The notes: a model not told the origin generated them from the letters alone. 20,000 bases of DNA from an uncultured virus (IMG/VR IMGVR_UViG_3300027708_002017) (IMGVR_UViG_3300027708_002017); one strand, 5' to 3'. Shown: positions 4,556-19,210, counted from the stretch's first letter. Numbers and translations: made by a program.

Positions 4556-4633
4556 TGGAGCAACGGGAGGGATTTGAACCCCCGGTTTTAGGGATTTGCA
4601 ATCCCTTGCATTGGACCTCTCTGCCACCGTTGC
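4556..4633 (-). tRNA. tRNA-Cys(GCA)
   Basis: Cloverleaf, loop TTGCAAA, U73, encoded CCA. Confidence 0.95.
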
Positions 4634-4637
4634 ATAA

Positions 4638-4713
4638 TGGTAGGACGTGACGGGTTCGAACCGCCGACATTCTGCGTGTAAGGCAGACGCTCTACCAACT
4701 GAGCTAACGTCCT
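4638..4713 (-). tRNA. tRNA-Val(TAC)
   Basis: Cloverleaf, loop CTTACAC, CCA. Confidence 0.95.
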
Positions 4714-4719
4714 AAGTTT

Positions 4720-4995
4720 TTATTTGTATTGTGCTCTGCGATCAATTGCACGATCTCGCGGAGTATCAAATTTGATTTTCTTGATATAGTCTACGCCACA
4801 CTCGCCTGATTGGAAATCAAGCAATGCACTAACATTACTGTGCAAGTGTTCAAATTTTTGACTATCTTTGTTCTGTCGACGAATTTCTCGACTACGTGCG
4901 GCCGCCATAATGACAAGATTAAATCTATTGCCACCGGACATTTCTACAATTTTGTCATTATCTAATTGGCCTACGCGGCTAGCTGTTTTAATCAT
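4720..4995 (-). CDS. rpoZ: RNA polymerase omega subunit homologue
   Basis: GNRFNLVIMAAARSREI resembles the omega core motif NRFxLVxxAAxRARQL; 91 aa; has its own promoter. Confidence 0.75.
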   Translation of the reverse strand: MIKTASRVGQLDNDKIVEMSGGNRFNLVIMAAARSREIRRQNKDSQKFEHLHSNVSALLDFQSGECGVDYIKKIKFDTPRDRAIDRRAQYK

Positions 4996-5014
4996 GTTCT
5001 ATCCTTAAAATTGT

Positions 5015-5043
5015 ATTATACTGTCTAGCTGACAGAATGTCAA
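5015..5043 (-). promoter_or_regulatory. sigma70 consensus promoter for the omega homologue and tRNA-Val/Cys
   Basis: TTGACA-17 bp-TATAAT. Confidence 0.9.
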
Positions 5044-5600
5044 CTATATTGCACGTCTGCAGCCAAAATAAATCTATAGTCTTCACTTTGGGCAATGCCT
5101 GGACGATGCCATAAATGACTAGGATAAATTAGCCATGTATAGTAGCTAGGGCGCACAAAAAACTTTTGATCACCTTCTGGTCCGTTTAAGGCAATCTCTG
5201 TCCCGCACGTATCCGAGTCTGCAACATCTTCAGGAATATGCAAATACATAATGCCACTGATGCCCTGTCCACCGTGTTTATCATGATGATGCCAGAGTGT
5301 ATCTCTATCCGGCTGAGTAGACTGTTTAGTCATAAAACTCCATGCCATCATGTTACTAACCCTTGCTTCATGTCCTAGATATAAGAATACACTGGTCAGG
5401 AATGTCATTCTATACTTTAACCAAATTGCCTCACTGCGTCCAAACAAATTTTCTTCTGTTTGGAATGGAGGGCTATTTTTAAAGTACTTGCCGCTTTCGA
5501 TTATACTTTTGATAATGCCTATAGCTGTGTCGTTTTCGGTAGCTGTGATCAAGCTACTGTAATCATACTTACGGCAAATTTCGTTTTGATCTATAATCAT
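5040..5600 (-). CDS. Putative 2OG-Fe(II) oxygenase
   Basis: WHHH...ISGIMYL...IYPSHLWH...R pattern. Confidence 0.7.
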   Translation of the reverse strand: MIIDQNEICRKYDYSSLITATENDTAIGIIKSIIESGKYFKNSPPFQTEENLFGRSEAIWLKYRMTFLTSVFLYLGHEARVSNMMAWSFMTKQSTQPDRDTLWHHHDKHGGQGISGIMYLHIPEDVADSDTCGTEIALNGPEGDQKFFVRPSYYTWLIYPSHLWHRPGIAQSEDYRFILAADVQYS

Positions 5601-6157
5601 ATATTAAATGCAAACACCTTGCGGACGTTATCATTGAGTTTTTGTGGAATCTCATGTTCTAACCAGGCATTCCACAACATTATCATACCTGTTTCTGCTT
5701 TCACTTCAAATTCATGTGATCTGTTATCGCCAAATACAGATGCGGCCCGGGGATCATGGAATACTATAGGCGGAACATCTTCACCTATATCTAAATACAC
5801 AATACCCGAGAATGTAGCATTAGAATGCATATGACGTTTCATATAAGCATACTGTTTCATCGAATGAAAAAATCCGTAAGGATTAAATTTAATTTCGTTG
5901 TAAGGTATGCCACATTCTTCTGCTAGTGCGGCCGCATGATTGTTCATAATATATGATAACACTTGCTGGACAACCAATTCAGAATTTACCGATTGATTAT
6001 GTCTGGAATTGTATGTCGTAGGAAAATTATCTACACCAAACAACGCTGTATCCGTGTCGGGCAAATACTTGTCGCAAACAAGCAACAATTCTTTTGCAAT
6101 ATCCAAATTTACACTTTTTACAATGCAAGTTGGAAAGACACGGTCTACAGTTATCAT
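5597..6157 (-). CDS. Putative 2OG-Fe(II) oxygenase (TIGR02466-like)
   Basis: HMH...FSGIVYL...FHDPR...WLEHE...RKVFAFN. Confidence 0.85.
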   Translation of the reverse strand: MITVDRVFPTCIVKSVNLDIAKELLLVCDKYLPDTDTALFGVDNFPTTYNSRHNQSVNSELVVQQVLSYIMNNHAAALAEECGIPYNEIKFNPYGFFHSMKQYAYMKRHMHSNATFSGIVYLDIGEDVPPIVFHDPRAASVFGDNRSHEFEVKAETGMIMLWNAWLEHEIPQKLNDNVRKVFAFNI

Positions 6158-6423
6158 GCAGTGCGCAAAATCAAATGATAGCCAAATTGTGTTTGCACTG
6201 GCTCACTTAATGCGCCGGGCTCTAATGCAAATGTTGCATCTTCGAATGGCTTGACCATTTGTCCGCGACCAAACGGACCTAAGTTCCCACCTTGACGACC
6301 GCTAGGGCATTTACTGACTTGACCGGCAATGGTGGCAAAATCTCCGCCGTTAAGAAGCTCATCATGAATCTTCGATGCTTGTTCTTGTGTTTCTACTAAA
6401 ATGTGACTTGCTGTTACTTGCAT
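6154..6423 (-). CDS. ppiC: Parvulin-type peptidyl-prolyl cis-trans isomerase
   Basis: ASHILV, SKCPSG..GGNLG.F..GQMVKPFE, PVQTQFGYHLI. Confidence 0.95.
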   Translation of the reverse strand: MQVTASHILVETQEQASKIHDELLNGGDFATIAGQVSKCPSGRQGGNLGPFGRGQMVKPFEDATFALEPGALSEPVQTQFGYHLILRTA

Positions 6424-6434
6424 GTTTTTTCCTT

Positions 6435-6947
6435 TTATAAAATAGTTTCTAATAATTTTCTAATTTCTAAATTTAGCAAAGGTAGATTATTAAATGTTGT
6501 ATTATTTTTACAAATCCAATTTGTTACTTTTACACCTTTAGCTAAGTTAAATTGTCCGCTTTTATGTACATAGTTGGCATTACATTCTGCCCACGTTAAC
6601 TGTGCGATAGCAAAATTTGCAGGGTTTGACTGTATACAAAGCAAATAATCAAACGAGTGCGCAAACGTTTGTTTGTTAGTATTCGCCAATGAAATTCTGC
6701 CAACTATGTCATCTCCTTTGAACATTTCAAAGGTCGATTTTAATTCATATTTTAACCCAGTTTGCTGATCAATGCTATCGTATCCTTCAGCGTCTACATA
6801 CTCTAATCTACCACCAGTGGCTTTTTCCAAAGCCAGGGCAATAACATCGCCTTTAAGGAATCGCAAATTCGGTTTATTAAATTGATTTCCTAATCTATCT
6901 AACATATCGACTACCGGTTGGTAGTCTACATTTACTAAAAAACTCAT
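6435..6947 (-). CDS. Hypothetical protein, possible PD-(D/E)xK nuclease fold
   Basis: GYDSID...KYELKS resembles the PD-(D/E)xK motif. Confidence 0.45.
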   Translation of the reverse strand: MSFLVNVDYQPVVDMLDRLGNQFNKPNLRFLKGDVIALALEKATGGRLEYVDAEGYDSIDQQTGLKYELKSTFEMFKGDDIVGRISLANTNKQTFAHSFDYLLCIQSNPANFAIAQLTWAECNANYVHKSGQFNLAKGVKVTNWICKNNTTFNNLPLLNLEIRKLLETIL

Positions 6948-6962
6948 AGGTTCCTTTAAAAT

Positions 6963-7039
6963 TGGTCGGAGTACAAGGATTCGAACCTTGGACCCCCTGG
7001 TCCCAAACCAGGTGCGCTACCAGACTGCGCTACACTCCG
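6963..7039 (-). tRNA. tRNA-Pro(TGG)
   Basis: Cloverleaf, loop TTTGGGA, CCA. Confidence 0.95.
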
Positions 7040-7045
7040 AAATAA

Positions 7046-7693
7046 TTACCAGCCGAAAGATACTCGGCTTGCCTGTGCATCACCTACGCCTAAATTGCCA
7101 GATATGCTGATTCTATAGTCATCCGAACTGTAAAACGGATGCACCGAATGATTGAGCAGTGCTGGAAACAATATCATTGTACCTTCATAGGTCTTGTCTG
7201 CTGGAATAGCCCAAGGATTAATACACCCTAATATATCAAGATATTGGAATGTAAAGTTTCCAGAACAATTCCTATCTTCTAATACATAGCTGGTAGCTTC
7301 TTTTTCTTCTTGTATTGTGTAGGGAATCTTAACCCAGAGCACATACGAAAAATTACCACTATGACTATGCAACGGATTAAATTCGCCTTTGCGTTGAAAA
7401 TTTACCCACGACTCGCCTGCTTTGTATTCTTCAAGAGGTCTAGTTTTATAACTAAATGCTTGTGCAAATCCGCCAATTAAATTTCTAGCCAGTTTTTCCA
7501 AAAGGTCGTGATTCTTAACCATTTGGTATTCGTGAGCCAATTGTCCCACCAAACTCTTTTGCATGGGAATAGCTTTTGTAAAATCTTCCTGGATTTCTGC
7601 AACTTCTGCTAGAATAGGTGCAAATTCTTCTTCTGTAAGTTTAGCACCCACAAATCCAAAATTTGGAAAACTACAATTATAATAATCTATCAT
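7046..7693 (-). CDS. Putative 2OG-Fe(II) oxygenase
   Basis: WVNFQ..GEFNPLHSH...FPALLNHSVHPF...RISISGN. Confidence 0.85.
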   Translation of the reverse strand: MIDYYNCSFPNFGFVGAKLTEEEFAPILAEVAEIQEDFTKAIPMQKSLVGQLAHEYQMVKNHDLLEKLARNLIGGFAQAFSYKTRPLEEYKAGESWVNFQRKGEFNPLHSHSGNFSYVLWVKIPYTIQEEKEATSYVLEDRNCSGNFTFQYLDILGCINPWAIPADKTYEGTMILFPALLNHSVHPFYSSDDYRISISGNLGVGDAQASRVSFGW

Positions 7694-7711
7694 GTGTATA
7701 CCTTTTTATAA

Positions 7712-7785
7712 TGGAGCGGGATAAGAGAATCGAACTCTTGACCGAAGATTGGAAATCTGCTGTTTTACCATTAAACTAATCCCGC
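7712..7785 (-). tRNA. tRNA-Gly(TCC)
   Basis: Cloverleaf, loop TTTCCAA, U73, CCA. Confidence 0.95.
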
Positions 7786-7893
7786 ACTTTATTAAAACAA
7801 ACTAAGGTGTATTAAGTATGCTAGCTATGCCGAGCAGTGACTGGGATACCAAACCTGATCTTTTTACGGATTCTAATTTGTTTTAATAAAGTG
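7785..7893 (-). ncRNA. Structured spacer RNA A, closed by a 17-bp perfect stem
   Basis: CACTTTATTAAAACAAA (7785-7801) / TTTGTTTTAATAAAGTG (7877-7893); no ORF. Confidence 0.6.
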
Positions 7894-8088
7894 TTTAGCT
7901 ACCCTCTCCCGAAGGCCCTAAACTGGGCGTAGTATCCGTACTGCATATTTCTATATGGACAGTTAATGCTCTGTCCTACGATTTTTTAAGTCTCCCGACA
8001 TGGGTCTGTAAGGCAAGATCGTAAGCGCCTGATGGATCTGGTAACCATCTACCCACTTTTAATTACCCTCAAAGTGTAACGGGGGAAC
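7891..8088 (-). ncRNA. Structured spacer RNA B (about 200 nt, possible pseudoknots)
   Basis: ORF-free; stems CACTTT/AAAGTG, TTAC/GTAA, TACGAT/ATCGTA, GGACAG/CTGTCC, GTTTAG/CTAAAC. Confidence 0.5.
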
Positions 8089-8164
8089 TGGTGCCCCTTG
8101 TCCGACTCGAACAGACCACCTACTGATTACAAATCAGTTGCTCTACCAGATGAGCTAAAGGGGC
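8089..8164 (-). tRNA. tRNA-Thr(TGT)
   Basis: Cloverleaf, loop TTTGTAA, CCA. Confidence 0.95.
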
Positions 8165-8174
8165 AAATAATTAA

Positions 8175-8387
8175 TTATGCTTCCGGTGCGGCCTCAGGTG
8201 CAACATATGGTGCATTACCACGAGCTGGTCCGCGATCGTTACGTGTAGGAGTTTTGATAACAACTTCACTACACAGCTGAGCATCAATCATCATGCGCTT
8301 GTATTGATTGCGTTGTTCTGTGTTAACAATACTGCACAACATACGTTTGGTTTGTTTGCTTAAATTAAATGTCTTACCTGGTTTCAT
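8175..8387 (-). CDS. Small basic hypothetical protein
   Basis: ORF fills the gap between tRNA-Ser and tRNA-Thr; purine-rich leader. Confidence 0.7.
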   Translation of the reverse strand: MKPGKTFNLSKQTKRMLCSIVNTEQRNQYKRMMIDAQLCSEVVIKTPTRNDRGPARGNAPYVAPEAAPEA

Positions 8388-8405
8388 ATTTTCTCTTTTT
8401 AAAAA

Positions 8406-8493
8406 TGGCGGAGTATGTAGGAATCGAACCTACTCACCCATTGCTGAATGACAGATTAGCAATCTGTTGCCTTAACCGGTCGGCCAATACTCC
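8406..8493 (-). tRNA. tRNA-Ser(GCT)
   Basis: Long variable arm, loop TTGCTAA, G73, CCA. Confidence 0.95.
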
Positions 8494-8523
8494 ATGTTTG
8501 GTATTTTACTTATATCATCTAAC

Positions 8524-8608
8524 TGGTGCGACTGCCCGGAATCGAACCGGGACGCTGTTAAGCGAGAGATTTTAAGTCTCTTGTGTCTACCTATTTCACC
8601 ACAGTCGC
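8524..8608 (-). tRNA. tRNA-Leu(TAA)
   Basis: Long variable arm, loop CTTAAAA, CCA. Confidence 0.95.
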
Positions 8609-8614
8609 GATATC

Positions 8615-8688
8615 TGGCGTACCCCCAGGGACTCGAACCCCGACGAACAGTTTTGGAGACTGTGATGCTGCCATTACATTAGGGATAC
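8615..8688 (-). tRNA. tRNA-Trp(CCA)
   Basis: Loop CTCCAAA, G73, CCA. Confidence 0.93.
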
Positions 8689-8693
8689 ATGAT

Positions 8694-8783
8694 TGGCGGA
8701 AACGGTGAGATTTGAACTCACGGTGCCTTTCGACACGACAGTTTTCAAGACTGTTGCAATAAACCGGACTCTGCCACATTTCC
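8694..8783 (-). tRNA. tRNA-Ser(TGA)
   Basis: Long variable arm, loop CTTGAAA, G73, CCA. Confidence 0.95.
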
Positions 8784-8856
8784 ATATAGAAACACACTAG
8801 CGGCAATGCCATCTTACTATCCCAGTATGTCGGGTGTTGGCTAATGTGTTTGTATA
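8784..8856 (-). ncRNA. Hairpin spacer RNA H1, exactly filling the Leu-Ser gap
   Basis: TATACAAACACATTAGC / GCTAGTGTGTTTCTATA closing stem; 3' arm identical to H2. Confidence 0.65.
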
Positions 8857-8939
8857 TGGTGCCCCAACCGAGACTCGAACTCGGACGCTTGCGCACTGGC
8901 TTCTAAGACCAGCGTGTCTACCAATTCCACCATCGGGGC
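8857..8939 (-). tRNA. tRNA-Leu(TAG)
   Basis: Long variable arm, loop CTTAGAA, CCA. Confidence 0.95.
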
Positions 8940-8953
8940 AAAACTTTTTATAA

Positions 8954-8986
8954 TTTTTAAAGAACAAATTTACTAATTGCTTAGTA
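8954..8986 (-). promoter_or_regulatory. rrn-like boxB-boxA antitermination leader
   Basis: TACTAA-GCAA-TTAGTA GNRA hairpin (8986-8971), then TGTTCTTTAAAAA (8966-8954), between the promoter and tRNA-Leu. Confidence 0.65.
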
Positions 8987-8993
8987 TGTGACT

Positions 8994-9022
8994 ATTATAT
9001 AACACATACGATACAATGTCAA
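8994..9022 (-). promoter_or_regulatory. sigma70 consensus promoter
   Basis: TTGACA-17 bp-TATAAT. Confidence 0.9.
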
Positions 9023-9041
9023 CAACTATTTAATATTATCT

Positions 9042-9116
9042 TGGCCGGTCCTGAGAGGATCGAACTCCCACCGTCGGTTTCGAAGACCGAAATGATATCC
9101 ATTTCACCAAGGACCG
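9042..9116 (-). tRNA. tRNA-Arg(TCG)
   Basis: Loop CTTCGAA, CCA. Confidence 0.92.
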
Positions 9117-9117
9117 A

Positions 9118-10311
9118 TTATGCTTTTAACTTTGTTAAATCTATTTTATAGCCTTTTAAATAGGCTGTCATCATGGACACATCTGTTGGATAATATCCAG
9201 TGATTGTACCAGTTGCTTCAACTTCAGCAAGCCATTTTTGCCATCTTGCAGATTTCTTTAAATGGTCAACTGAACGTATTTTTAATGCGTTCCAAAAAGG
9301 ACTGTCGATTTGATTATCACCGCAGTAGTTTAACGCCATCAAATTTTGTATGTCTTCCATAGCCTCGTTATTAAATTTATTGATAACATGATTCATTTCG
9401 TCTATAGATGCTTTATTTAAAACACCATCAATAAAACAATCGGACAACAATGCATAGTAATGCAATGGCATTGCCTGTTGCGGTTCATATAGATATAATC
9501 TGTTGCCCATGGATAAAATTCTTCCATCTATAGCACGAGCTTTTCTATAAGGCCGCCAGCTAAAATTTCTCAGTGTTGATGCATCTATGCCTTTGATTTT
9601 ACTAAAATCTTCTACGGCTTCTTTGTAGGAAGTAAACTCTTTGTTATAACAATACCCAAATGCTTTTCTTAATGTTAGAGGAACACCAAACATCCACCCA
9701 TTGTTGTGTACATACGCCGATGTATTATTTTCCTGATAGTCTTTAAAATCAGGATTCAATATCACAGAATTAACTGATTGAAATACATCTGTTACATAAG
9801 TGTCACTGTCTAATTCTTCTGCTTTTGGAGATCCTGAACAATCTACTACAAAATCAAATGTATAGCTGTCGGCTTTGCCTTTGACTAACACACTGTTCTC
9901 TTGATTCTCTACAGATATTACTTCATCAAATATTTCATGAAAATAGCTATATTTGTCAACGAGCTTTTTAAAAACATAATTACTCCACTTATCGCTGTTT
10001 AAATGTAAACCGGGAGTGTAGTAACGAATAGTAAAATCGTTGCCGTTGGCATCTGCCCAAAAATATTTTGTATAATATCTGAGTGTGCCGTCGTACTTTT
10101 CTAATTCTTCTAAAAAACCTACACCTAACACATCTCGCATGGTATCATGTACAAGTCCGCTAGTACTTTCTCCCACTTGTGCTGTGGGCTTTGTGGGATC
10201 ACTTAGACAATACAGTTCTATATCCGTGAACTTGCCGCGGGTTAGAGTTTGTATCATAATTAATATTGATATTGCACTGGCCGTGCCGGCTCCTATAATT
10301 CCTATTTTCAT
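9118..10311 (-). CDS. Tryptophan-halogenase-like flavoprotein
   Basis: N-terminal IIGAGTAS Rossmann motif, VGEST, DFVVDCSG, GWMFGVP (WxWxIP-like), GN..YLYEP. Confidence 0.8.
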   Translation of the reverse strand: MKIGIIGAGTASAISILIMIQTLTRGKFTDIELYCLSDPTKPTAQVGESTSGLVHDTMRDVLGVGFLEELEKYDGTLRYYTKYFWADANGNDFTIRYYTPGLHLNSDKWSNYVFKKLVDKYSYFHEIFDEVISVENQENSVLVKGKADSYTFDFVVDCSGSPKAEELDSDTYVTDVFQSVNSVILNPDFKDYQENNTSAYVHNNGWMFGVPLTLRKAFGYCYNKEFTSYKEAVEDFSKIKGIDASTLRNFSWRPYRKARAIDGRILSMGNRLYLYEPQQAMPLHYYALLSDCFIDGVLNKASIDEMNHVINKFNNEAMEDIQNLMALNYCGDNQIDSPFWNALKIRSVDHLKKSARWQKWLAEVEATGTITGYYPTDVSMMTAYLKGYKIDLTKLKA

Positions 10312-10898
10312 TTTATATACACCACTCGGTTTTTACTAGCTTTAACTAGTGATTCAATAGTTTCTTCTAATCTGTTTACATTAAAAGATATAGATCTTCT
10401 TTTTGTATTAGTTGTCTTAAGCGGAATACGATGTGGTGTTTCGGCTGGCCAAATCATCATCTTTCCAAGTTTGGATTCATACGGTGTAGCAACACCGTTG
10501 ATTCTAAATTCTATACGGGACTCTGGTTCTGTAAATTCATGATAGTAAACACCGGACAACATAGTAGGCTTATGATTGTGCCAAAGTGCCGCACTGCCTT
10601 CTTGCATGTCAGTTGCCCAACAGTCTACAATTTTAAAATTTGTATCGCCTAGATAATCTTCAACGTTTTTTGTAATAACACTTTTTAAAACATCAAGATT
10701 ATGGAGATCTATAATGTTAATCATCATGTCTCCATAACTAGTAGCCACACGCGGTGTGCCAATAGGTTTACCTTGTTTTATATCTTCGTCGTCGAATTGA
10801 TTAGAATAATGTAAAGGCAAATTATAAAAGTCACCTAGTTCTTTTTGTAAATCTTCAAAGTATTGTCCCGTGACTTGGTATTCTTTAATTTTACTCAT
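10308..10898 (-). CDS. Putative 2OG-Fe(II) oxygenase
   Basis: WHNH...LSGVYY...WPAETPH...RRSISFN. Confidence 0.85.
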   Translation of the reverse strand: MSKIKEYQVTGQYFEDLQKELGDFYNLPLHYSNQFDDEDIKQGKPIGTPRVATSYGDMMINIIDLHNLDVLKSVITKNVEDYLGDTNFKIVDCWATDMQEGSAALWHNHKPTMLSGVYYHEFTEPESRIEFRINGVATPYESKLGKMMIWPAETPHRIPLKTTNTKRRSISFNVNRLEETIESLVKASKNRVVYIK

Positions 10899-11637
10899 TG
10901 GGCATCCTTGGCTGACTTAATCTATACCACATTAGCCCGTCTACTAATTCGTTATATTGACTTGCATCTAAATTACAAAATTCAAATATGGGCTGTAAGA
11001 ATGCATTTTCATCGCCGTCTAAATAATCAGCGTATGATATGTGCAGTACATTATCTAATACATATTTCTTTTTGGCAGAAACAAATAAGATTTCTTCGTC
11101 GAGCCATTTAAAGAATTCAAGATTTTCTAAATTTAGATGTTGTATTCGATTGACACATTCATTGTAATCCTGCTTGTATTTTTCTACTAAGCCTGTCAGC
11201 AAACTAACATTACCACTGATTGATTTGTGTAGAACATTAAATCTGCATCGCTTTATTTGATCACTAGTAGTGTCTATACAAATAAATTTTGCAGTAGGAA
11301 ACGCTTCTATGAATATGTCAAGATTAGCACAATGTAATGATATTACTGTTGGCCTATAAAAGGGTATTATAAAATTTTGTAAGTGCTCTATTCGTTGCGC
11401 AGTGGTCCACGTTTCATAGTGTGTATCATCTACAATAGCTCTGCCGATATCACTAAACAAATGGTCTTTGTATACACCTTGTATATGACTAATATAAGTG
11501 TTGCCGTGTCCCGAACCTTTACTGTCTACAATAAGATTGACTTCAGGTGTTAGAGCTTTCTGTATCATACTGGCTAGAAAAGTTCCGCCTGCACCTAACG
11601 GATAGCATATAAAAATAATAGGGTGATCATTCATCAA
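10891..11637 (-). CDS. Hypothetical protein, sulfotransferase/P-loop-like
   Basis: N-terminal YPLGAGGTFLASMI loop; C-terminal ISYADY...IFEFCNL resembles sulfotransferase tails. Confidence 0.5.
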   Translation of the reverse strand: MMNDHPIIFICYPLGAGGTFLASMIQKALTPEVNLIVDSKGSGHGNTYISHIQGVYKDHLFSDIGRAIVDDTHYETWTTAQRIEHLQNFIIPFYRPTVISLHCANLDIFIEAFPTAKFICIDTTSDQIKRCRFNVLHKSISGNVSLLTGLVEKYKQDYNECVNRIQHLNLENLEFFKWLDEEILFVSAKKKYVLDNVLHISYADYLDGDENAFLQPIFEFCNLDASQYNELVDGLMWYRLSQPRMPNE

Positions 11638-11655
11638 CTATATATCTTATTTAAG

Positions 11656-11730
11656 TGGCCCGGCTAGCAGGAATCGAACCCACATTCTAGAGGTAGAAGC
11701 TCTATGTACTATCCATTGTACTATAGCCAG
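11656..11730 (-). tRNA. tRNA-Arg(TCT)
   Basis: Loop CTTCTAC, CCA. Confidence 0.92.
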
Positions 11731-11737
11731 ATAATCT

Positions 11738-11766
11738 ATTATATGTTATTTACTAGCATGTGTCAA
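11738..11766 (-). promoter_or_regulatory. sigma70 consensus promoter between tRNA-Leu and tRNA-Arg
   Basis: TTGACA-17 bp-TATAAT; predicted start at or next to the tRNA-Arg 5' end. Confidence 0.9.
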
Positions 11767-11767
11767 G

Positions 11768-11855
11768 TGGTGCCCTGGATGAGATTCGAACTCACAACTA
11801 GGTTTTTCCTTCTTCCTTTTGAGAGAAGTGCGTCTACCAATTTCGCCACCAGGGC
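11768..11855 (-). tRNA. tRNA-Leu(CAA)
   Basis: Long variable arm, loop CTCAAAA, CCA. Confidence 0.92.
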
Positions 11856-11857
11856 AA

Positions 11858-12439
11858 TTATTTCAATTCAAAATTACCTAGATTAAAACTCATACTAATA
11901 CGTTCAACGCTTGAATGAAACGGATGTACTGAATGATTTAAATCTGCTGGAAACAATAGTATGTCTCCGCTATTAGGTTTAATAGCATATTTTTGATCAT
12001 CGTGAGCAAATTCAATATGACCTGCAAGATTATCTTCAAAAATTTCTTCAGGAATGTCTATGTAAATCACAGCACTCATTTCGCCACCGTGTGCGTGAAA
12101 ATCTATATATTCGTTTTCTGTTTGAAAATTTATCCAAGCCACTGGCATATAAAAATTAACACTGGTATATTCACTTTGTTCCGCAGTATTAATATAATTT
12201 AGAATATGTGATCCTATACAATTAGTGAATATGCTAATTTGTTCGTTAGTAAATCCAACTTTCAAATGATTTTTTAGTGCGGATGTATTATCTGCCCATA
12301 AGTTTGCTCCAACATTTTCGTTATGTTGTCTAGTTTCTTCTGCTATATTTTTTAAAAATAACAAAAAATCTTTATCAATTGTGCTACTATACATAGTAGG
12401 ACCGTTATTTCCAAAATGCTTAGTTACTTTATAAGTCAT
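11858..12439 (-). CDS. Putative 2OG-Fe(II) oxygenase (start corrected to MTYKVTK)
   Basis: WINFQ...FHAH...FPADLNHSVHPF...RISMSFN; the longer start would overlap tRNA-Gly. Confidence 0.85.
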   Translation of the reverse strand: MTYKVTKHFGNNGPTMYSSTIDKDFLLFLKNIAEETRQHNENVGANLWADNTSALKNHLKVGFTNEQISIFTNCIGSHILNYINTAEQSEYTSVNFYMPVAWINFQTENEYIDFHAHGGEMSAVIYIDIPEEIFEDNLAGHIEFAHDDQKYAIKPNSGDILLFPADLNHSVHPFHSSVERISMSFNLGNFELK

Positions 12440-12455
12440 ATAATATCCAAATAAG

Positions 12456-12529
12456 TGGAGCGGGATAGGAGAATCGAACTCCTGACTAAACCTTGGCAAG
12501 GTTTCGTTTGACCATTAAACTAATCCCGC
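12456..12529 (-). tRNA. tRNA-Gly(GCC)
   Basis: Loop TTGCCAA, U73, CCA. Confidence 0.95.
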
Positions 12530-12536
12530 ATAAAGA

Positions 12537-12788
12537 TATTAATAGAAAGCACTAAAAGTTTTGGTCCTCGTCAAAGAAAACATGGCTACCCAGGTCTTAC
12601 AGTCCTGCTCTATTTGTCTAGCAAACATGGGGCACCTTTGCCGCGCTTAGAATCTCCCAGACTGTAAATCCTGATTCTTATCACTGCCGGCTTGCATACA
12701 GTTTATAACTGTCCTTTCTCCGCAACTTTCCGAGTTACAAATACTTGTTGTTTCCAAATGCGTGTATGCCTTGTGCTTTCTATTAATA
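12537..12788 (-). ncRNA. Large structured spacer RNA C (about 250 nt), closed by a 16-bp perfect stem
   Basis: TATTAATAGAAAGCAC / GTGCTTTCTATTAATA; internal stems GCATAC/GTATGC, ACAGT/ACTGT, TTACAGTC/GACTGTAA, AGAATC/GATTCT. Confidence 0.7.
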
Positions 12789-12801
12789 ACTTTATTTATA
12801 A

Positions 12802-12848
12802 AGTGTCAGATTGTTCTCCGCACAACCTGACAAAGCGGGGGTCTGTCT
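12802..12848 (-). ncRNA. Small pseudoknot-like element after tRNA-Phe
   Basis: CCGC/GCGG interleaved with TGTCAG(G)TTGT/ACAA(T)CTGACA. Confidence 0.4.
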
Positions 12849-12924
12849 TGGTACACCCTGTTGGAATCGAACCAACTTCAACGGCTCTTCAGACCGCCGC
12901 TATGACCACATCAGCTAAAGGTGC
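12849..12924 (-). tRNA. tRNA-Phe(GAA)
   Basis: Loop CTGAAGA, CCA. Confidence 0.92.
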
Positions 12925-12926
12925 AT

Positions 12927-13018
12927 TGGTACCAGCGGAGGGGATCGAACCCTCTCAAGAACGCTAATCTGGCGCTAAAAGGTGTATAAGACCTCTCTGA
13001 CTTCCAAGTCTCGCTGGC
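12927..13018 (-). tRNA. Atypical tRNA with TAT anticodon (nominally Ile), long variable arm and shortened D arm
   Basis: Acceptor GCCAGCG/CGCTGGT, D arm GACT-TGGA-AGTC, loop CTTATAC, variable arm AGCGC/GCGTT, T loop TTCGATC, ACCA. Confidence 0.8.
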
Positions 13019-13027
13019 AAAAAAAAT

Positions 13028-13103
13028 TGGGGTATCCTACCGGTATCGATCCGGTACTACCGCTTTCACAGAGCAGGGTGCAGGCCACTACACTAAGGAC
13101 ACC
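13028..13103 (-). tRNA. tRNA-His(GTG)
   Basis: G-1:C73 8-bp acceptor, loop CTGTGAA. Confidence 0.93.
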
Positions 13104-13108
13104 GTAGA

Positions 13109-13780
13109 TTAAAACTGTTTGATTTGATATTGACGTGACCTGACATAGTTTTGATATGCAGGATTTTGAAACTCTTGTTTCATTATATCTTCAAGACCTT
13201 CGATTAAAGGCTGGGGAATATTTAATAAGAAACTGTTTGTACTGTATCGCACACCAGTTTCGACTGGGTCTACTCCATGCACCCAAAAATAATCTGCTGG
13301 CCAAATCATTCCTTCGCCGGCAGATAGTTTAACACGATGTTCGCCGTTCCAAAATACAAAATCTCCGCCAGTATAATCATCATTCAAATTAAATGTAGCA
13401 CTGCCGTACACATGAGGACCATGATCCGTGTGTGGATGTATTTTGGCGCCAGGTTCATATTTTAACAGTCGATACATGTGACTGAACACCATACTGCGTC
13501 TAGCAAACACATGGAACATTTTAAATGTGTCCAAATAGTCCATGTACTCATTGATAAGAGTTTCATTGGCTTTGAAAACCAAATTCCACGCTTCGGTACC
13601 GTATACTAATTCGCCTCTTTTAAATGTGCTCTGTGTGTTGACACCGGTATTTGCATCTGGGCAATTTTCCAAAGTATCATTATTTTCTAATTTAGCGTAT
13701 TCTTCAATTAAAAATTGACATTCCTCTTTGCTGAACGCATTTTTTTTATGAAAAATTAATTGAGTTAAGTTTATAGTCAT
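13109..13780 (-). CDS. 2OG-Fe(II) oxygenase, prolyl-4-hydroxylase-like (start corrected to MTINLTQ)
   Basis: LLKY...HPHTD...LNDDYTGGDF...HGV.PV..G.RYS. Confidence 0.9.
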   Translation of the reverse strand: MTINLTQLIFHKKNAFSKEECQFLIEEYAKLENNDTLENCPDANTGVNTQSTFKRGELVYGTEAWNLVFKANETLINEYMDYLDTFKMFHVFARRSMVFSHMYRLLKYEPGAKIHPHTDHGPHVYGSATFNLNDDYTGGDFVFWNGEHRVKLSAGEGMIWPADYFWVHGVDPVETGVRYSTNSFLLNIPQPLIEGLEDIMKQEFQNPAYQNYVRSRQYQIKQF

Positions 13781-13802
13781 GCAACTATTTATTTTGCAGT
13801 TC

Positions 13803-13877
13803 TGGTACCGCCACAAGGAATCGAACCTCAATTACCAGTTCCGCAAACTAGTGTATTATCCATTATACGATAGCGAT
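13803..13877 (-). tRNA. tRNA-Arg(GCG)
   Basis: Loop TTGCGGA, CCA. Confidence 0.88.
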
Positions 13878-13882
13878 AAATT

Positions 13883-13958
13883 TGGCACCCCCTGATGGAC
13901 TCGAACCACCGCGTGTCGGAATCAAAATCCGATGCCTTACCAACTTGGCGAAGAGGGT
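13883..13958 (-). tRNA. tRNA-Gln(TTG)
   Basis: Loop TTTTGAT, G73, CCA. Confidence 0.92.
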
Positions 13959-13960
13959 AT

Positions 13961-14036
13961 TGGTGGTAATAGCTGGACTCGAACCAGCGATAGACTGCGT
14001 ATGAAGCAGTTGCATTAGCCACTATGCTATATTACC
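13961..14036 (-). tRNA. tRNA-CAT (elongator Met; Ile2 not excluded)
   Basis: Loop TTCATAC, fully paired acceptor, CCA. Confidence 0.88.
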
Positions 14037-14122
14037 ATATAGAAACACACTCGGACCGTTTTCATCAGCAGACGGTGGTCTTGCCTTATGTAAACTATGT
14101 CTACATCGAATATGTTTTTATA
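14037..14122 (-). ncRNA. Hairpin spacer RNA H2, exactly filling the Lys-Met gap
   Basis: TATAAAAACATATTCG / CGAGTGTGTTTCTATA closing stem; internal hairpins ATGTAGAC/GTTTACAT and ACCGT/ACGGT. Confidence 0.65.
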
Positions 14123-14197
14123 TGGTGCGGGCAGAGGGATTCGAACCCACGACCAATAGATTAAAAGTCTACTGCTCTACCACTGAGCTATACCCGC
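14123..14197 (-). tRNA. tRNA-Lys(TTT)
   Basis: Loop CTTTTAA, CCA. Confidence 0.95.
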
Positions 14198-14249
14198 GAT
14201 CATCTTGCCACTCTTGTCACTATTCATGACAGATCTCCTTTTAAAAATT

Positions 14250-14324
14250 TGGTACTCCGAACGAGTATCGATCTCGCTTCTTCGCCTTGAAAGGGCAACG
14301 TTCTAGCCACTAAACTACCGGAGT
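14250..14324 (-). tRNA. tRNA-Glu(TTC)
   Basis: Loop CTTTCAA, CCA. Confidence 0.9.
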
Positions 14325-14329
14325 GTATT

Positions 14330-14404
14330 TGGTAGCCAATGATGGGAACGATCCATCGACCCTCGCCTTATCAAGACGATGCTCTACCACTGAGCTAATT
14401 GGCT
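14330..14404 (-). tRNA. tRNA-Ile(GAT)
   Basis: Loop TTGATAA, variant T loop ATCGTTC, CCA. Confidence 0.92.
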
Positions 14405-14407
14405 GTT

Positions 14408-14483
14408 TGGTGGAGGATACAGGGATCGAACCTGCGACCTATTGCTTGCAAAGCAACCGCTCTCCCAACTGAGCTAATCCCCC
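14408..14483 (-). tRNA. tRNA-Ala(TGC)
   Basis: G3:U70, loop TTTGCAA, CCA. Confidence 0.95.
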
Positions 14484-14487
14484 AAAA

Positions 14488-14752
14488 TGCTCTGACGTCC
14501 CCCGGCGGTAATTATAGTGTATCAGAAATTTCGTCAAGTTGCCCCAACTAGTCTATTCATCACTTACACCTTCCACCCGCTTCCCGACAGGGACCGCTCT
14601 CGTGTTGCTAACGCCGGTTAGGTTGGACCGCACATACATCCATGTTCTATCATGGCCTCTGTGTGAAACTTTTACGTTTCAGAACCACCCGTAGTTGTCA
14701 CACTACTTCTCATCGTCTGGGTCAGACTATCCAGTGACGCTGGAACGTTCTT
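14488..14752 (-). ncRNA. Large structured RNA D (about 265 nt), possibly manA-like
   Basis: ORF-free and GC-rich; stems GTAGT/ACTAC, GAAAC/GTTTC, CCATG/CATGG, GTGTA/TACAC, and long-range TCTGAC/GTCAGA; resemblance to manA is from memory only. Confidence 0.6.
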
Positions 14753-14828
14753 TGGCTCCCCGAGGTGGGTTCGAACCACCGACCTGCGGATTAACAGTCC
14801 GTCGCTCTACCGACTGAGCTATCAGGGA
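14753..14828 (-). tRNA. tRNA-Asn(GTT)
   Basis: Loop CTGTTAA, G73, CCA. Confidence 0.95.
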
Positions 14829-14834
14829 ACAATT

Positions 14835-14908
14835 TGGTTGCGGGACCTAGAATCGCACTAGGAACTGTAGCTTATGAGACTACCGAGATACTATTTCTCT
14901 ATCCCGCG
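14835..14908 (-). tRNA. tRNA-fMet-like (CAT)
   Basis: C1:A72 mismatch, CGCGGG 5' end, loop CTCATAA; lacks the three G-C pairs in the anticodon stem. Confidence 0.85.
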
Positions 14909-14914
14909 ATAACC

Positions 14915-14990
14915 TGGTACACGGTACGGGAATCGAACCCGTCTTACTGACGTGAAAGGCCAGTGTCCTAAACCGATAGACGAACCGTGC
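14915..14990 (-). tRNA. tRNA-Glu(TTC), second divergent copy
   Basis: Loop CTTTCAC, CCA. Confidence 0.9.
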
Positions 14991-14999
14991 ATACTAACT

Positions 15000-15074
15000 T
15001 GGCGGCTCCAAGGGGAATCGAACCCCTATTAATGGCGTGACAAGCCACCGTACTAACCATTATACTATGAAGCC
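15000..15074 (-). tRNA. tRNA-Asp(GTC)
   Basis: Loop TTGTCAC, G73, CCA. Confidence 0.93.
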
Positions 15075-15081
15075 TAAAACT

Positions 15082-15166
15082 TGGTGGAGAAAGTAAGATT
15101 CGAACCTACTCACCCGAAGGAACAGATTTACAGTCTGCCGCGCCTCTCCCACTGCGCCGTTTCTCC
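15082..15166 (-). tRNA. tRNA-Tyr(GTA), first tRNA of the array
   Basis: Long variable arm, loop CTGTAAA, CCA. Confidence 0.95.
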
Positions 15167-15180
15167 ATGTCTTAATTATA

Positions 15181-15391
15181 ACACTCTCCCGCTATGCTGT
15201 CAACCGCTGTGCAGGCGGAGGTGGAGAGTGTGTATTAAAGCACTCTACATGGATGAACCCACTTGCCTTACGGCCTGAGAATGCTTTAATACGCTACGAT
15301 TTTTCGATCCAGAAGAGGAGTTTCATCCCGTAGGCCGCCCATTCGCCCATGTTTAGAGTGCAGGCTAGGATCTCGTTTCCTATACACACTT
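15181..15391 (-). ncRNA. Structured RNA region E between the attenuator and first tRNA, with alternative pairings
   Basis: GTATTAAAGCATTCT/AGAGTGCTTTAATAC and ACACTCTCC/GGAGAGTGT hairpins compete with AGTGTGTAT/ATACACACT and GCACTCTA/TAGAGTGC. Confidence 0.6.
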
Positions 15392-15403
15392 TTTCGAAAG
15401 TCT

Positions 15404-15441
15404 AAAAACAAAAAACCCCAGGGTTTTTAATCCTAGGGTCC
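15404..15441 (-). terminator. Attenuator terminator upstream of the tRNA array
   Basis: GGACCCTAGG-ATTAAAAAC-CCTGGGGTTT followed by TTTGTTTTT. Confidence 0.85.
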
Positions 15442-15490
15442 TTGGAGTTTGAATGTAAACTGTGTTTACAAAATGTCCTCCCGGACCCTG
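15435..15490 (-). promoter_or_regulatory. Antiterminator hairpin overlapping the end of the leader ORF
   Basis: AGGGTCC/GGACCCT plus GGAG/CTCC plus TGTAAAC/GTTTACA; sequesters the terminator 5' arm and contains the leader stop codon. Confidence 0.75.
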
Positions 15491-15612
15491 TGATTCTCTG
15501 GTGTACGATCATATGATAAACTTCCGCCATTAATCGATGACCAAGAACAGGCTATAATGCCTGCCTGCTTGGGCATTGTATTAAACAGCTGATGTCTAAA
15601 ATTTGATTGCAT
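15466..15612 (-). CDS. Putative attenuator leader peptide, 48 aa (MQSNFRHQLFNTMPKQAGIIACSWSSINGGSLSYDRTPENHRVREDIL)
   Basis: ATG after purine-rich AAGAAGAGATAAACGAGAAACAAA; between the promoters and terminator; all 20 amino acids; below the ORF-track cutoff. Confidence 0.7.
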   Translation of the reverse strand: MQSNFRHQLFNTMPKQAGIIACSWSSINGGSLSYDRTPENHRVREDIL

Positions 15613-15670
15613 TTTGTTTCTCGTTTATCTCTTCTTTAAAATTAGCTAGCATCTTTGCTAACTAGTCTCT

Positions 15671-15699
15671 ATTGTAGCACCTTGCTACCATGTTGTCAA
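15671..15699 (-). promoter_or_regulatory. sigma70 promoter P2 of the leader/tRNA operon
   Basis: TTGACA-17 bp-TACAAT. Confidence 0.85.
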
Positions 15700-15753
15700 C
15701 ACTTTTTAAAAAATATTTTGAAAATTTTTCTGGAGCACTAACAACATGTCTTT

Positions 15754-15782
15754 ATTGTATGTTTATTTAGTCTCTTTGTCAA
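15754..15782 (-). promoter_or_regulatory. sigma70 promoter P1 of the leader/tRNA operon
   Basis: TTGACA-17 bp-TACAAT. Confidence 0.85.
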
Positions 15783-15806
15783 CTACTTGATTGAAATGTT
15801 GTATTT

Positions 15807-16601
15807 TTACGACATCCCAAGATCTTTTCTGATTTTTGTAGCACTGATGTCGGTGATACTGCTGTCAAAAGTTTCTTGTTCAATTCGGTAGCCAACATCT
15901 CGACCATATGTTATGTTTACAATGTTAGGCACTATCTGTATAGTATACTGCCCTTGATACAACATGTCAAGATCTCTTTGAATAAATTTCTTAACTTTTT
16001 CAATTTCAAACGGATTGCTTCCTTGCCAGCCTTGACAATCGCGGATCATGATACACACTTGACCAGTCTTAGCAATGGCACGATCAAACAATGCTCTGTG
16101 GCCATCATGCCATGGCTGCCAACGACCCAGCATCTGCACTGTTTCCTTTTGCCAGTCAAACGTCGGACGTCTACGATTGTCAATGATATGTGCGGCAACA
16201 AACTCGCCCCACTTTTCTGAGTTTTGTTCAGTGATTCTAAAATCGTATTCTGCTGGTTCGACAAACATAGCGTTAGTATCCGCATAACGTCCTTCACGGA
16301 TTGTGTCTACCCAAATAGTCCAATCTGCTTTGAAGTTGTGGCGCATTTCTGCCAATGGCGCAACAAAGTCACAGATAACATAATCCATATCAGTCATGCT
16401 GTCAGCTAGTTCTCGCATACGCAGACTTTGACGAATACGACCAGATTCGCTAAAATCCCAGTCGTTATACCTTTTACGCACATCATCGGCATTAAGCCAT
16501 CCCACACGTTTCTTTTCAGCTTGCAAATGATTTACAATATGCTGTGCTAGATAAGTTTTGCCTGCGCCAGGCAAGCCCATTACTAATATTCGTTTTGTCA
16601 T
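15807..16601 (-). CDS. Adenylylsulfate-kinase-like domain fused to a HIGH-motif nucleotidyltransferase domain
   Basis: MGLPGAGKT P-loop, LNADDVR...DFS..GR; C-terminal GRWQPWHDGH and YGRDVGY...ISATKIR. Confidence 0.85.
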   Translation of the reverse strand: MTKRILVMGLPGAGKTYLAQHIVNHLQAEKKRVGWLNADDVRKRYNDWDFSESGRIRQSLRMRELADSMTDMDYVICDFVAPLAEMRHNFKADWTIWVDTIREGRYADTNAMFVEPAEYDFRITEQNSEKWGEFVAAHIIDNRRRPTFDWQKETVQMLGRWQPWHDGHRALFDRAIAKTGQVCIMIRDCQGWQGSNPFEIEKVKKFIQRDLDMLYQGQYTIQIVPNIVNITYGRDVGYRIEQETFDSSITDISATKIRKDLGMS

Positions 16602-18757: not shown

Positions 18758-18786
18758 AGTATATATGCCTAAACAAGACTAGTCAA
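18758..18786 (-). promoter_or_regulatory. sigma70-type promoter
   Basis: TTGACT-17 bp-TATACT. Confidence 0.7.
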
Positions 18787-18800
18787 GATTTATTTAGCTC

Positions 18801-18828
18801 AAAAAGAAACCCGCCGAAACGGGTTTCT
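18801..18828 (-). terminator. Terminator after tmRNA
   Basis: AGAAACCCG(T)-TTCG-(G)CGGGTTTCT followed by TTTT. Confidence 0.9.
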
Positions 18829-19136
18829 ACTATTTTGGGTGATAAGGTATAGCTACCTCACGAGGGCTGTTTCTTAGGCAGCGATTGCAAATTCTTCGTC
18901 ATTCATTGCTGAAATGTCGAAGTCTACTTGCACAAACTCGAATGTATTTGCGTTTGCATTTACGATTTTTGCTTGATTTACAGTCATCGCCTACTGTGTT
19001 GCCGTCTCTATTATCTCACCCTGTCGAAACCATGGCTCGCCCAACTAAGAATACTAATCCAATACACTTAGGTGGACGAGGCGGGAGTCGAACCCGCGTC
19101 CAGAATGCCTTCACTTTGAAGGGATTACAACAATTC
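18829..19136 (-). ncRNA. ssrA: Circularly permuted two-piece tmRNA
   Basis: Acceptor piece ending GGTTCGACTCCCGCCTCGTCCACC (3' end 19071) precedes the coding piece starting GGGCGAG...TTCGAC (5' end 19042); G3:U70; tag frame 18957-18874 ends FAIAA; outer ends approximate. Confidence 0.92.
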
Positions 19137-19144
19137 TTTAAAAA

Positions 19145-19210
19145 TTAACGCTTTTTGCGAGTAGCTCGCATTGCTCGTGCTTTGATTGATTTTACGCGAC
19201 CTTTTGTCAT
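19145..19210 (-). CDS. 21-aa highly basic peptide MTKGRVKSIKARAMRATRKKR
   Basis: AAGGAG SD; between the promoter at 19238-19266 and tmRNA. Confidence 0.65.
   Translation of the reverse strand: MTKGRVKSIKARAMRATRKKR

Follow-up and report, generated by a model that had tools for sequence, protein, structure and literature searches.

This report concerns a leader unit at positions 15,404 to 15,782 of a 20,000-nucleotide (nt) stretch of DNA (hereafter the window) from the uncultured virus IMGVR_UViG_3300027708_002017 (IMG/VR), which belongs to an uncultured jumbo phage of lakes; all features of the unit lie on the minus strand (Table 1). Two tandem promoters, P1 and P2, are followed by a short open reading frame (ORF), an intrinsic terminator (T) and, further downstream, an array of tRNA genes. 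On the evidence of sequence comparison and modelled folds, the unit is probably a ribosome-mediated transcription attenuator, whose leader would serve as a test track for the whole decoding apparatus. The leader contains every amino acid, as do most of its relatives; its reading frame and its composition are under selection; its last codons form one arm of an antiterminator hairpin (H1) that excludes T; a second hairpin (H0) covers most of the ORF; both hairpins covary; and the unit stands at the head of the tRNA array.

The original prediction, made on the window, had named two TTGACA-17-TACAAT promoters, a 48-codon ORF (15612-15466), an intrinsic terminator after it and pairing of the last leader codons with the 5' arm of that terminator, and had counted 20 amino acids and 35 distinct codons in the leader, among them AGA, AGG, CGT, CGG, ATA, TTA and CCC. 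Both promoters were found in their places, the ORF was borne out, the two counts are right and each of the codons named is present. T proved to be an 11-pair stem (15442-15432/15422-15412) with a 9-nt loop, followed by a U-tract (TTTTTTGTTTTT to 15404); a simple terminator scan that allowed loops of at most 8 nt passed over it. The proposed pairing is the minimum-energy fold in all three tiers: the basal stem of H1 joins AGGGTCC (15489-15483) to GGACCCT (15441-15435), and inside it lie GGAG/CTCC and TGTAAAC/GTTTACA. The 5' arm of H1 consists of the final leader codons, with the stop codon within the apical stem. At the base of H0, the UG of the start codon and the codons that follow pair with the Asp-Arg-Thr codons. 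The 271-nt transcript folds at -85.9 kcal/mol, compared with -52.6 +/- 4.4 kcal/mol in shuffles (z = -7.5), and this value, together with the recurrence of all features in relatives, shows the unit to be more than a chance arrangement. A further stem-loop, at the 5' end of the P2 transcript, differs in its stem sequence between relatives in the alignment.

Relatives were uncultured phages of ~345 kb in IMG/VR. A search with the pattern of T returned at least 120 loci, 119 of which had enough upstream sequence and gave 100 distinct sequences for ORF analysis. A pattern built on the Asp-Arg-Thr-Pro-Glu codons returned 119 stretches, 33 of them with the same T; the other 85 were mostly chance matches, with ~25 judged by eye to be true homologues carrying variant terminators. 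A conserved short ORF upstream of arrays in relatives, one of the checks proposed with the original prediction, was found: the ORF is open in all 100 distinct homologues (35-50 codons), its ATG stands in a single alignment column in 97, and its stop is TAA in 93 and TAG in 7, while the remaining five frames hold 1.3-4.3 stops on average. The distance from the ATG to the Asp codon falls into ten length classes between 81 and 120 nt, every one a multiple of three (84/89; the remaining 5 are spurious earlier motif matches). The comparison supports an ORF that is selected to be read. The peptide itself looks unimportant, and being translated looks important.

The composition of the leader carries the second part of the argument, and here too a proposed check, high codon diversity in relatives' leaders, had a clear outcome. 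A complete set of 20 amino acids is found in 87 of the 100 leaders, with 19 in 10 and 18 in 3 (mean 19.84 distinct), compared with all 20 in 3.8% of same-length segments of these phages' proteins (mean 17.1 distinct residues). When alignment columns were shuffled among sequences, a mean of 17.5 per 100 contained all 20 (maximum 29), and 0 of 2000 shuffles reached 87. The excess persists among representatives below 70, 60 and 50% identity (56, 40 and 29 sequences), of which 46, 31 and 21 carry all 20 against expectations of 8.6, 5.5 and 3.5; one leader of just 35 residues still carries all 20. In the other frames all 20 amino acids occur in 0-4 of 100. Cys is found in 97 leaders and as a single copy in 83, its commonest column accounting for only 13, and His, Tyr and Phe likewise shift between alignment columns. 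Such wandering residues are the pattern that would be expected if selection favoured at least one of each amino acid, anywhere in the leader; a leader kept by selection to contain every amino acid is supported by these comparisons. No runs of codons for any pathway amino acid were found in the leader.

The array of the window has 27 anticodons, and under strict wobble rules all but Val-UAC (26 of 27) have a matching codon in its leader; segments drawn from phage genes (20,000 draws) cover 18.75 anticodons on average and 25 at most. At least 26 anticodons are covered by 38% of real leaders, scored against the anticodon set of the window, versus 2.6% after synonymous codons were resampled from phage usage.

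Covarying stems in relatives, likewise proposed as a check, were found for both hairpins. For H1 (alignment A6, 99 sequences, model R1), 93.3% of cells are paired, versus 80.4% when shuffled and 26-55% when slid, and 14 of 19 pairs are altered on both sides (218 cells versus 66 in shuffles). For H0 (73 sequences aligned to model R2, to which 27 of the 100 source sequences had no match at E <= 1e-5), the corresponding values are 88.7%, 81.7% and 24-39%, with 20 of 30 pairs altered on both sides; H0 is self-contained and does not pair with the 5' arm of H1. For T, 91.3% of cells are paired in the 99 sequences, 77 of which had been found through the pattern that fixes T. In variant relatives the basal stem of H1 reads GGGUUC/GAACCC in place of GGGUCC/GGACCC, both strands having changed, and T is also altered on both strands, e.g., CCCUAGAA/UUCUAGGG. 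The last base of the shared segment pairs as G-C (51) or A-U (40) in H1, and as C-G (52), U-G (34) or U-A (9) in T.

Each of 12 diverse homologues forms H1. Its basal stem lies within the minimum-energy fold in 112 of 117 distinct sequences, and the part inside the basal stem has a mean z of -2.96 relative to shuffles (below -2 in 95 of 117). The 5' arm of H1 is translated in differing frames (51, 35 and 3 of 89), so this stretch is conserved as RNA. The in-frame stop nevertheless stays in upper H1 despite the drift in frame: in 84 of 89 sequences it precedes the beginning of the T pattern by 24-34 nt, with stops of other frames scattered from -89 to +44; in most of the 117 it lies 20-24 nt past the start of the H1 5' arm.

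Because the 7-nt 3' arm of H1 is contained in the 5' arm of T, completion of either structure precludes that of the other, and the mutual exclusion originally proposed is upheld. The inner stems of H1 can coexist with T, so that the fair energy contrast is between the H1 state and the inner stems plus T; at the decision point, with the U-tract omitted, the H1 state is the lower in 114 of 117 sequences, by a mean of 3.2 kcal/mol. Folding with and without a ribosome footprint at the stop had also been proposed as a check. In modelled folds, free RNA adopts H1 in 88 of 112 sequences and T in 19; a 30-nt footprint placed at the stop turns this round, to T in 89 and H1 in 18, and one placed at the Asp codon gives H1 in 85 of 112.

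The unit stands consistently before tRNA genes. In 80 of 123 loci, T is followed at a distance of 170-1006 nt by a tRNA gene on the same strand; in the remaining 43, the downstream sequence is at most 495 nt long. Where 5 kb or more is available on each side (44 loci), the mean number of tRNA genes is 27.2 downstream and 1.02 upstream, and 32 of these loci have none upstream. At least one strong promoter, mostly two in tandem, lies 190-420 nt upstream of T in 68 of 71 distinct relatives, and no promoter-like site (at least 10/12) separates T from the first tRNA in 49 of these 71 loci. The upstream neighbour in the window is a 264-aa kinase-like gene ending at 15807 (APS_kinase, E = 3.4e-11), with hundreds of relatives in IMG/VR at 76-86% identity, several of them on contigs of ~342-346 kb. 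A tie between the element and this gene was considered and rejected: the element was found within 4 kb in only 2 of 80 kinase loci, and therefore goes with the tRNA array and not with the kinase.

Between T and the first tRNA gene of the window, tRNA-Tyr (15166), lies a spacer of 237 nt. The original prediction was right that the tRNA array lies downstream of the terminator, and overlooked this spacer, which holds a conserved structured RNA (element B) and a perfect promoter. Element B combines a 15-pair stem with two hairpins, one of the GGAAACGAG type and the other apical and T-loop-like; both sides are altered in 17 of its 34 predicted pairs (12 sequences). It follows T in 45 of the 74 relatives whose flanks are long enough, and no Rfam family matched it. 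Its only upstream promoters in the window are P1 and P2, so that element B depends on readthrough of T. The first four perfect promoters of Table 1 lie before or inside the array and divide it into several units, and the fifth lies just beyond the last tRNA gene. In the window, then, what the switch strictly gates is element B, plus extra readthrough into the array. The claim that the leader controls the tRNA array is supported in part: the unit heads the arrays of relatives, and the array of the window has a perfect promoter of its own.

Table 1 Features of the leader unit and the tRNA array in the 20,000-nt window; sigma-70-type promoters are scored as matches to the 12 consensus positions.
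Feature	Position	Strand	Remarks
Promoter P1, TTGACA-17-TACAAT	15782-15754	-	11/12 consensus matches
Promoter P2, TTGACA-17-TACAAT with TG extension	15699-15671	-	11/12 consensus matches
Stem-loop at 5' end of P2 transcript	15643-15664	-	Minimum-energy fold
Leader ORF, 48 codons	ATG 15612 to TAA 15468-15466	-	All 20 amino acids
H0, long hairpin across codons 1 to ~37	15504-15611	-	RNAalifold, model R2
H1, three-tier antiterminator hairpin	15489-15435	-	Minimum-energy fold and covariation
T, intrinsic terminator	15442-15404	-	5' arm includes the 3' arm of H1
Element B, conserved structured RNA	15392-15210	-	Between T and the array's own promoter
Perfect sigma-70-type promoter, TTGACA-17-TATAAT with TG extension	15203-15175	-	12/12; ends 8 nt before tRNA-Tyr
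tRNA array, 29 ARAGORN calls with ORFs interspersed	4556-15166	-	
Perfect sigma-70 promoters (12/12)	15203-15175, 11766-11738, 9022-8994, 5043-5015, 4545-4517	-	

Under the attenuator reading, host RNA polymerase would initiate at P1 and P2, and a ribosome would load on the leader, probably co-transcriptionally, before H0 closes across the start codon. A ribosome keeping pace to the stop would cover the 5' arm of H1, and the freed GGACCCU could then pair with the 3' arm of T; T would form and transcription would stop at ~15404. Were the ribosome delayed at any upstream codon, or never loaded, H1 would form first and hold the shared segment, T would be blocked, and the polymerase would continue into element B and the tRNA genes. 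This polarity, in which reaching the stop leads to termination and a stall to readthrough, fits the geometry and the modelled footprint folds. With every amino acid, and codons for 26 of 27 tRNA species, represented in the leader, a shortage of any single charged tRNA would raise readthrough, and the supply of tRNAs would thus feed back negatively on transcription into the array. We infer that readthrough shifts with ribosome position in this direction, that the signal could be tRNA depletion, host shut-off or the action of anticodon nucleases, and that H0 may have a role in polymerase pausing or in the loading window. Tentatively, and with somewhat less than even confidence, we would extend this to a phage homeostat for all tRNAs, in which a pangram leader measures decoding speed code-wide and opens tRNA transcription when decoding is slow; if true, the phage would carry its own means of detecting the decay of host tRNAs or the action of defence nucleases that cleave tRNA.

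Several findings weigh against the attenuator reading and have to be set beside the evidence above. A perfect promoter directly before tRNA-Tyr, and four more further down, mean that the array of the window is not governed by the switch alone, and promoter-like sites between T and the first tRNA also occur in 22 of the 71 relatives. The leader shows no codon periodicity (entropy 1.16, 1.07 and 1.15 at positions 1, 2 and 3), from which it follows that RNA structure dominates its conservation and that the evidence for translation consists of frame and composition; synonymous sites are near-fixed (GAT 91, ACA 79, CCA 78) because H0 covers codons 1 to ~37. Shine-Dalgarno signals are weak and variable, one clade being nearly leaderless, and the start codon is partly paired within H0. 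Across 36 arrays, no clear correspondence was seen between leader codons and the gain or loss of individual tRNA genes (best of 21 Fisher tests, p = 0.005); one trend runs in the opposite direction, and some anticodons are poorly covered (TCG 9/29, CAA 8/26, CTT 2/18). Alignments A6 and A8 were fitted to models and thereby favour the structures; RNAalifold on a plain MAFFT alignment of the 100 sequences recovered T alone, model-guided alignments being required for the rest. The complete RNA with its U-tract, at equilibrium and free of ribosomes, prefers T in 19 of 112 sequences, and 18 of 112 still hold H1 when a footprint is modelled at the stop. Four lake metatranscriptome runs, from four studies, contain contigs that cover the leader and T, and one contig runs from inside the ORF through T into element B, but such contigs prove neither the ends of a transcript, nor its strand, nor an RNA as opposed to a DNA origin of the reads. 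The attenuator interpretation of the original prediction thus gains comparative support in its reading frame, composition, antiterminator, mutual exclusion and head-of-array position, and is weakened for the window, where the switch cannot be the sole control.

Some of these points would suit a self-contained small unit that makes an abundant small RNA or micro-protein, with T acting independently of ribosomes and the tRNAs expressed from their own promoters or by constant leakage through T. The perfect promoter after T in the window and the promoter-like sites in 22 relatives, the extremely structured RNA (z = -7.5), nucleotide-level conservation without codon periodicity and the leader contigs in lake RNA libraries are all in keeping with such a unit. 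It gives no account, however, of a stop kept in upper H1 while the frame drifts over the 5' arm, of a 3' arm of H1 that is also the 5' arm of T and covaries on the H1 side, of an all-20 composition in which residues such as Cys wander, of the lack of a promoter from T to the first tRNA in 49 of 71 relatives, or of the unit always heading the array; we therefore consider it unlikely. The same all-20 composition, specific to one frame, and the enriched anticodon cover are left without reason if the structure is an RNA switch answering to another signal (temperature, a protein, a ligand or, T-box-like, uncharged tRNA) and the ORF merely lets ribosomes open it. Conserved, covarying H0 and H1, synonymous sites conserved as much as others and a start codon partly sequestered by H0 speak for a switch of this kind, but no riboswitch, T-box or thermometer family was matched even at E up to 10, and we regard it as improbable.

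A ribosome may also be stalled by the peptide it is making; TnaC and SecM are examples of stalling from within the exit tunnel. Applied to the leader, the conserved Trp and the Asp-Arg-Thr-Pro-Glu motif would arrest the ribosome on a small molecule and so set the choice between H1 and T. The fixed columns agree with this as far as they go: Trp keeps to a single alignment column in 99 of 100 leaders, and the corresponding counts are 91 for Asp, 90 for Arg and 83 of 95 for Pro. The same codons are, however, fixed synonymously as well, and they make up the 3' arm of H0, so that RNA pairing explains their conservation; moreover, a stall at this place would favour H1 constitutively, and the all-20 composition would again be left unexplained. 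Nascent-peptide arrest is accordingly the most improbable of the explanations considered here.

One leader unit alone was found in the 20-kb window, where model R1 matches only once. A leader-like ORF (a start, at least 15 codons, high diversity and a terminator) was found in none of the four ORF-free gaps and was also absent after the promoter at 9022, and the ORFs that end just upstream of tRNA genes (91, 70 and 215 aa) resemble ordinary short genes. With Rfam at the gathering score, the whole window yielded only tRNAs and a transfer-messenger RNA (tmRNA), with no leader family of the Trp, His, Thr or Leu type; at E up to 10, the region 15100-15850 yielded 10 sub-threshold matches at chance level, with no leader family, T-box, riboswitch or thermometer among them. 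Among cultured phages, blastn with 901 nt matched only tRNA-Tyr look-alikes in 42 records, the best of which, Ralstonia phage RsoM2USA, has neither array nor leader at the matching place. A search with the exact 61-nt hairpin pattern gave 0 matches. The sequencing runs that contain the stretch are mostly from freshwater or lake samples.

The array itself comprises 29 tRNA genes called by ARAGORN, which together represent all 20 amino acids through 27 anticodons; 28 of these calls are confirmed by Rfam. The exception, a 92-nt tRNA-Ile(tat) at 12927-13018 (-), is called by ARAGORN and not matched by the Rfam tRNA model; a call with this anticodon is also made in 21 of 36 related arrays, and the gene may contain an insertion or encode an atypical tRNA. 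Three stretches of the array, 14484-14752, 12530-12848 and 7786-8088 (-), 269-319 nt long and without a leader-like ORF, may hold further RNAs of unknown type; 12530-12848 folds with z = -3.8, and 7786-8088 has an 11-nt motif in common with element B. Many relatives have a small Lys/Glu-rich ORF (~51 codons) that possesses a good ribosome-binding site and begins ~10-20 nt after T (e.g., L011:5050-5220 and L045:8130-8300, two copies that differ mostly synonymously); it is absent in the window.

Other genes of the window were noted as follows. Six ORFs resembling 2OG-Fe(II) oxygenases, one of them below the Pfam cut-off, lie among the tRNA genes at 5040-13831 (-), as does an ORF resembling tryptophan halogenases; the nearest phage relatives of the halogenase-like ORF are in cyanophages (24-33% identity). 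A tmRNA gene at 18783-19184 (-), upstream of the array, for which ARAGORN predicts a tag peptide, matches betaproteobacterial and permuted tmRNA models; a phage-borne tmRNA of this type hints at a betaproteobacterial host. A 395-aa ORF at 196-1383 (-) has an Mtd_N (major tropism determinant N-terminal) domain (E = 8e-9) and may encode a receptor-binding protein of the type diversified by retroelements.

Why phages carry tRNA genes is debated, and phage tRNAs have been linked to escape from tRNA-cleaving defences (PMC10264068, PMC11555353, PMC12409363); to our knowledge, hardly anything is known of how phage tRNA genes are controlled. A full-text literature search found, in the portions of the literature it returned, no account of leader-peptide attenuation of phage tRNA genes. 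The moraphage study, by the part of its text retrieved, concerns another lineage (PMC12619734), and in the retrieved part of PMC12482277 the terms attenuator, leader, terminator and promoter do not occur. If the attenuator reading is correct, an all-20 leader would widen classical attenuation from a single amino acid to overall decoding capacity, and would extend its logic beyond enzymes to RNA genes. The composition statistic, with all amino acids present at wandering positions, offers a simple computational signature for similar sensors elsewhere, and the sigma-70-type promoters and the intrinsic terminator make the idea directly testable.

Three known systems invite comparison. In attenuators of the trp/his type (trpL, hisL, thrL, leuL, ilvL, pheL), the position of the ribosome on the leader decides the fold, and a stall leads to readthrough. 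The phage unit resembles these enterobacterial attenuators in having a short ORF right after the promoter and an antiterminator and terminator with a common strand, and, by analogy, in the predicted selection of the fold by ribosome position, with termination when the stop is reached. It differs from them in having no run of regulatory codons, every amino acid being present once or a few times; in lying before tRNA genes instead of biosynthetic enzymes; in an ORF whose body is itself a long conserved hairpin; in matching no Rfam leader family; and in apparently lacking a 1:2 anti-antiterminator, so that an untranslated leader should read through and not be super-attenuated. T-box riboswitches of Firmicutes bind one specific uncharged tRNA directly and are untranslated; the phage unit would share with them the sensing of tRNA supply, as proposed here, and an antiterminator/terminator choice before genes of the translation apparatus, but it has a conserved translated ORF and no match to the T-box family. 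In pyrBI of E. coli, a ribosome close behind the polymerase keeps the terminator hairpin from forming, and UTP-dependent pausing serves as the signal. As in pyrBI, the read-out of the phage leader would be the closeness of the ribosome to the polymerase and not a single amino acid, whereas the polarity would be the opposite, a ribosome that keeps pace leading to termination.

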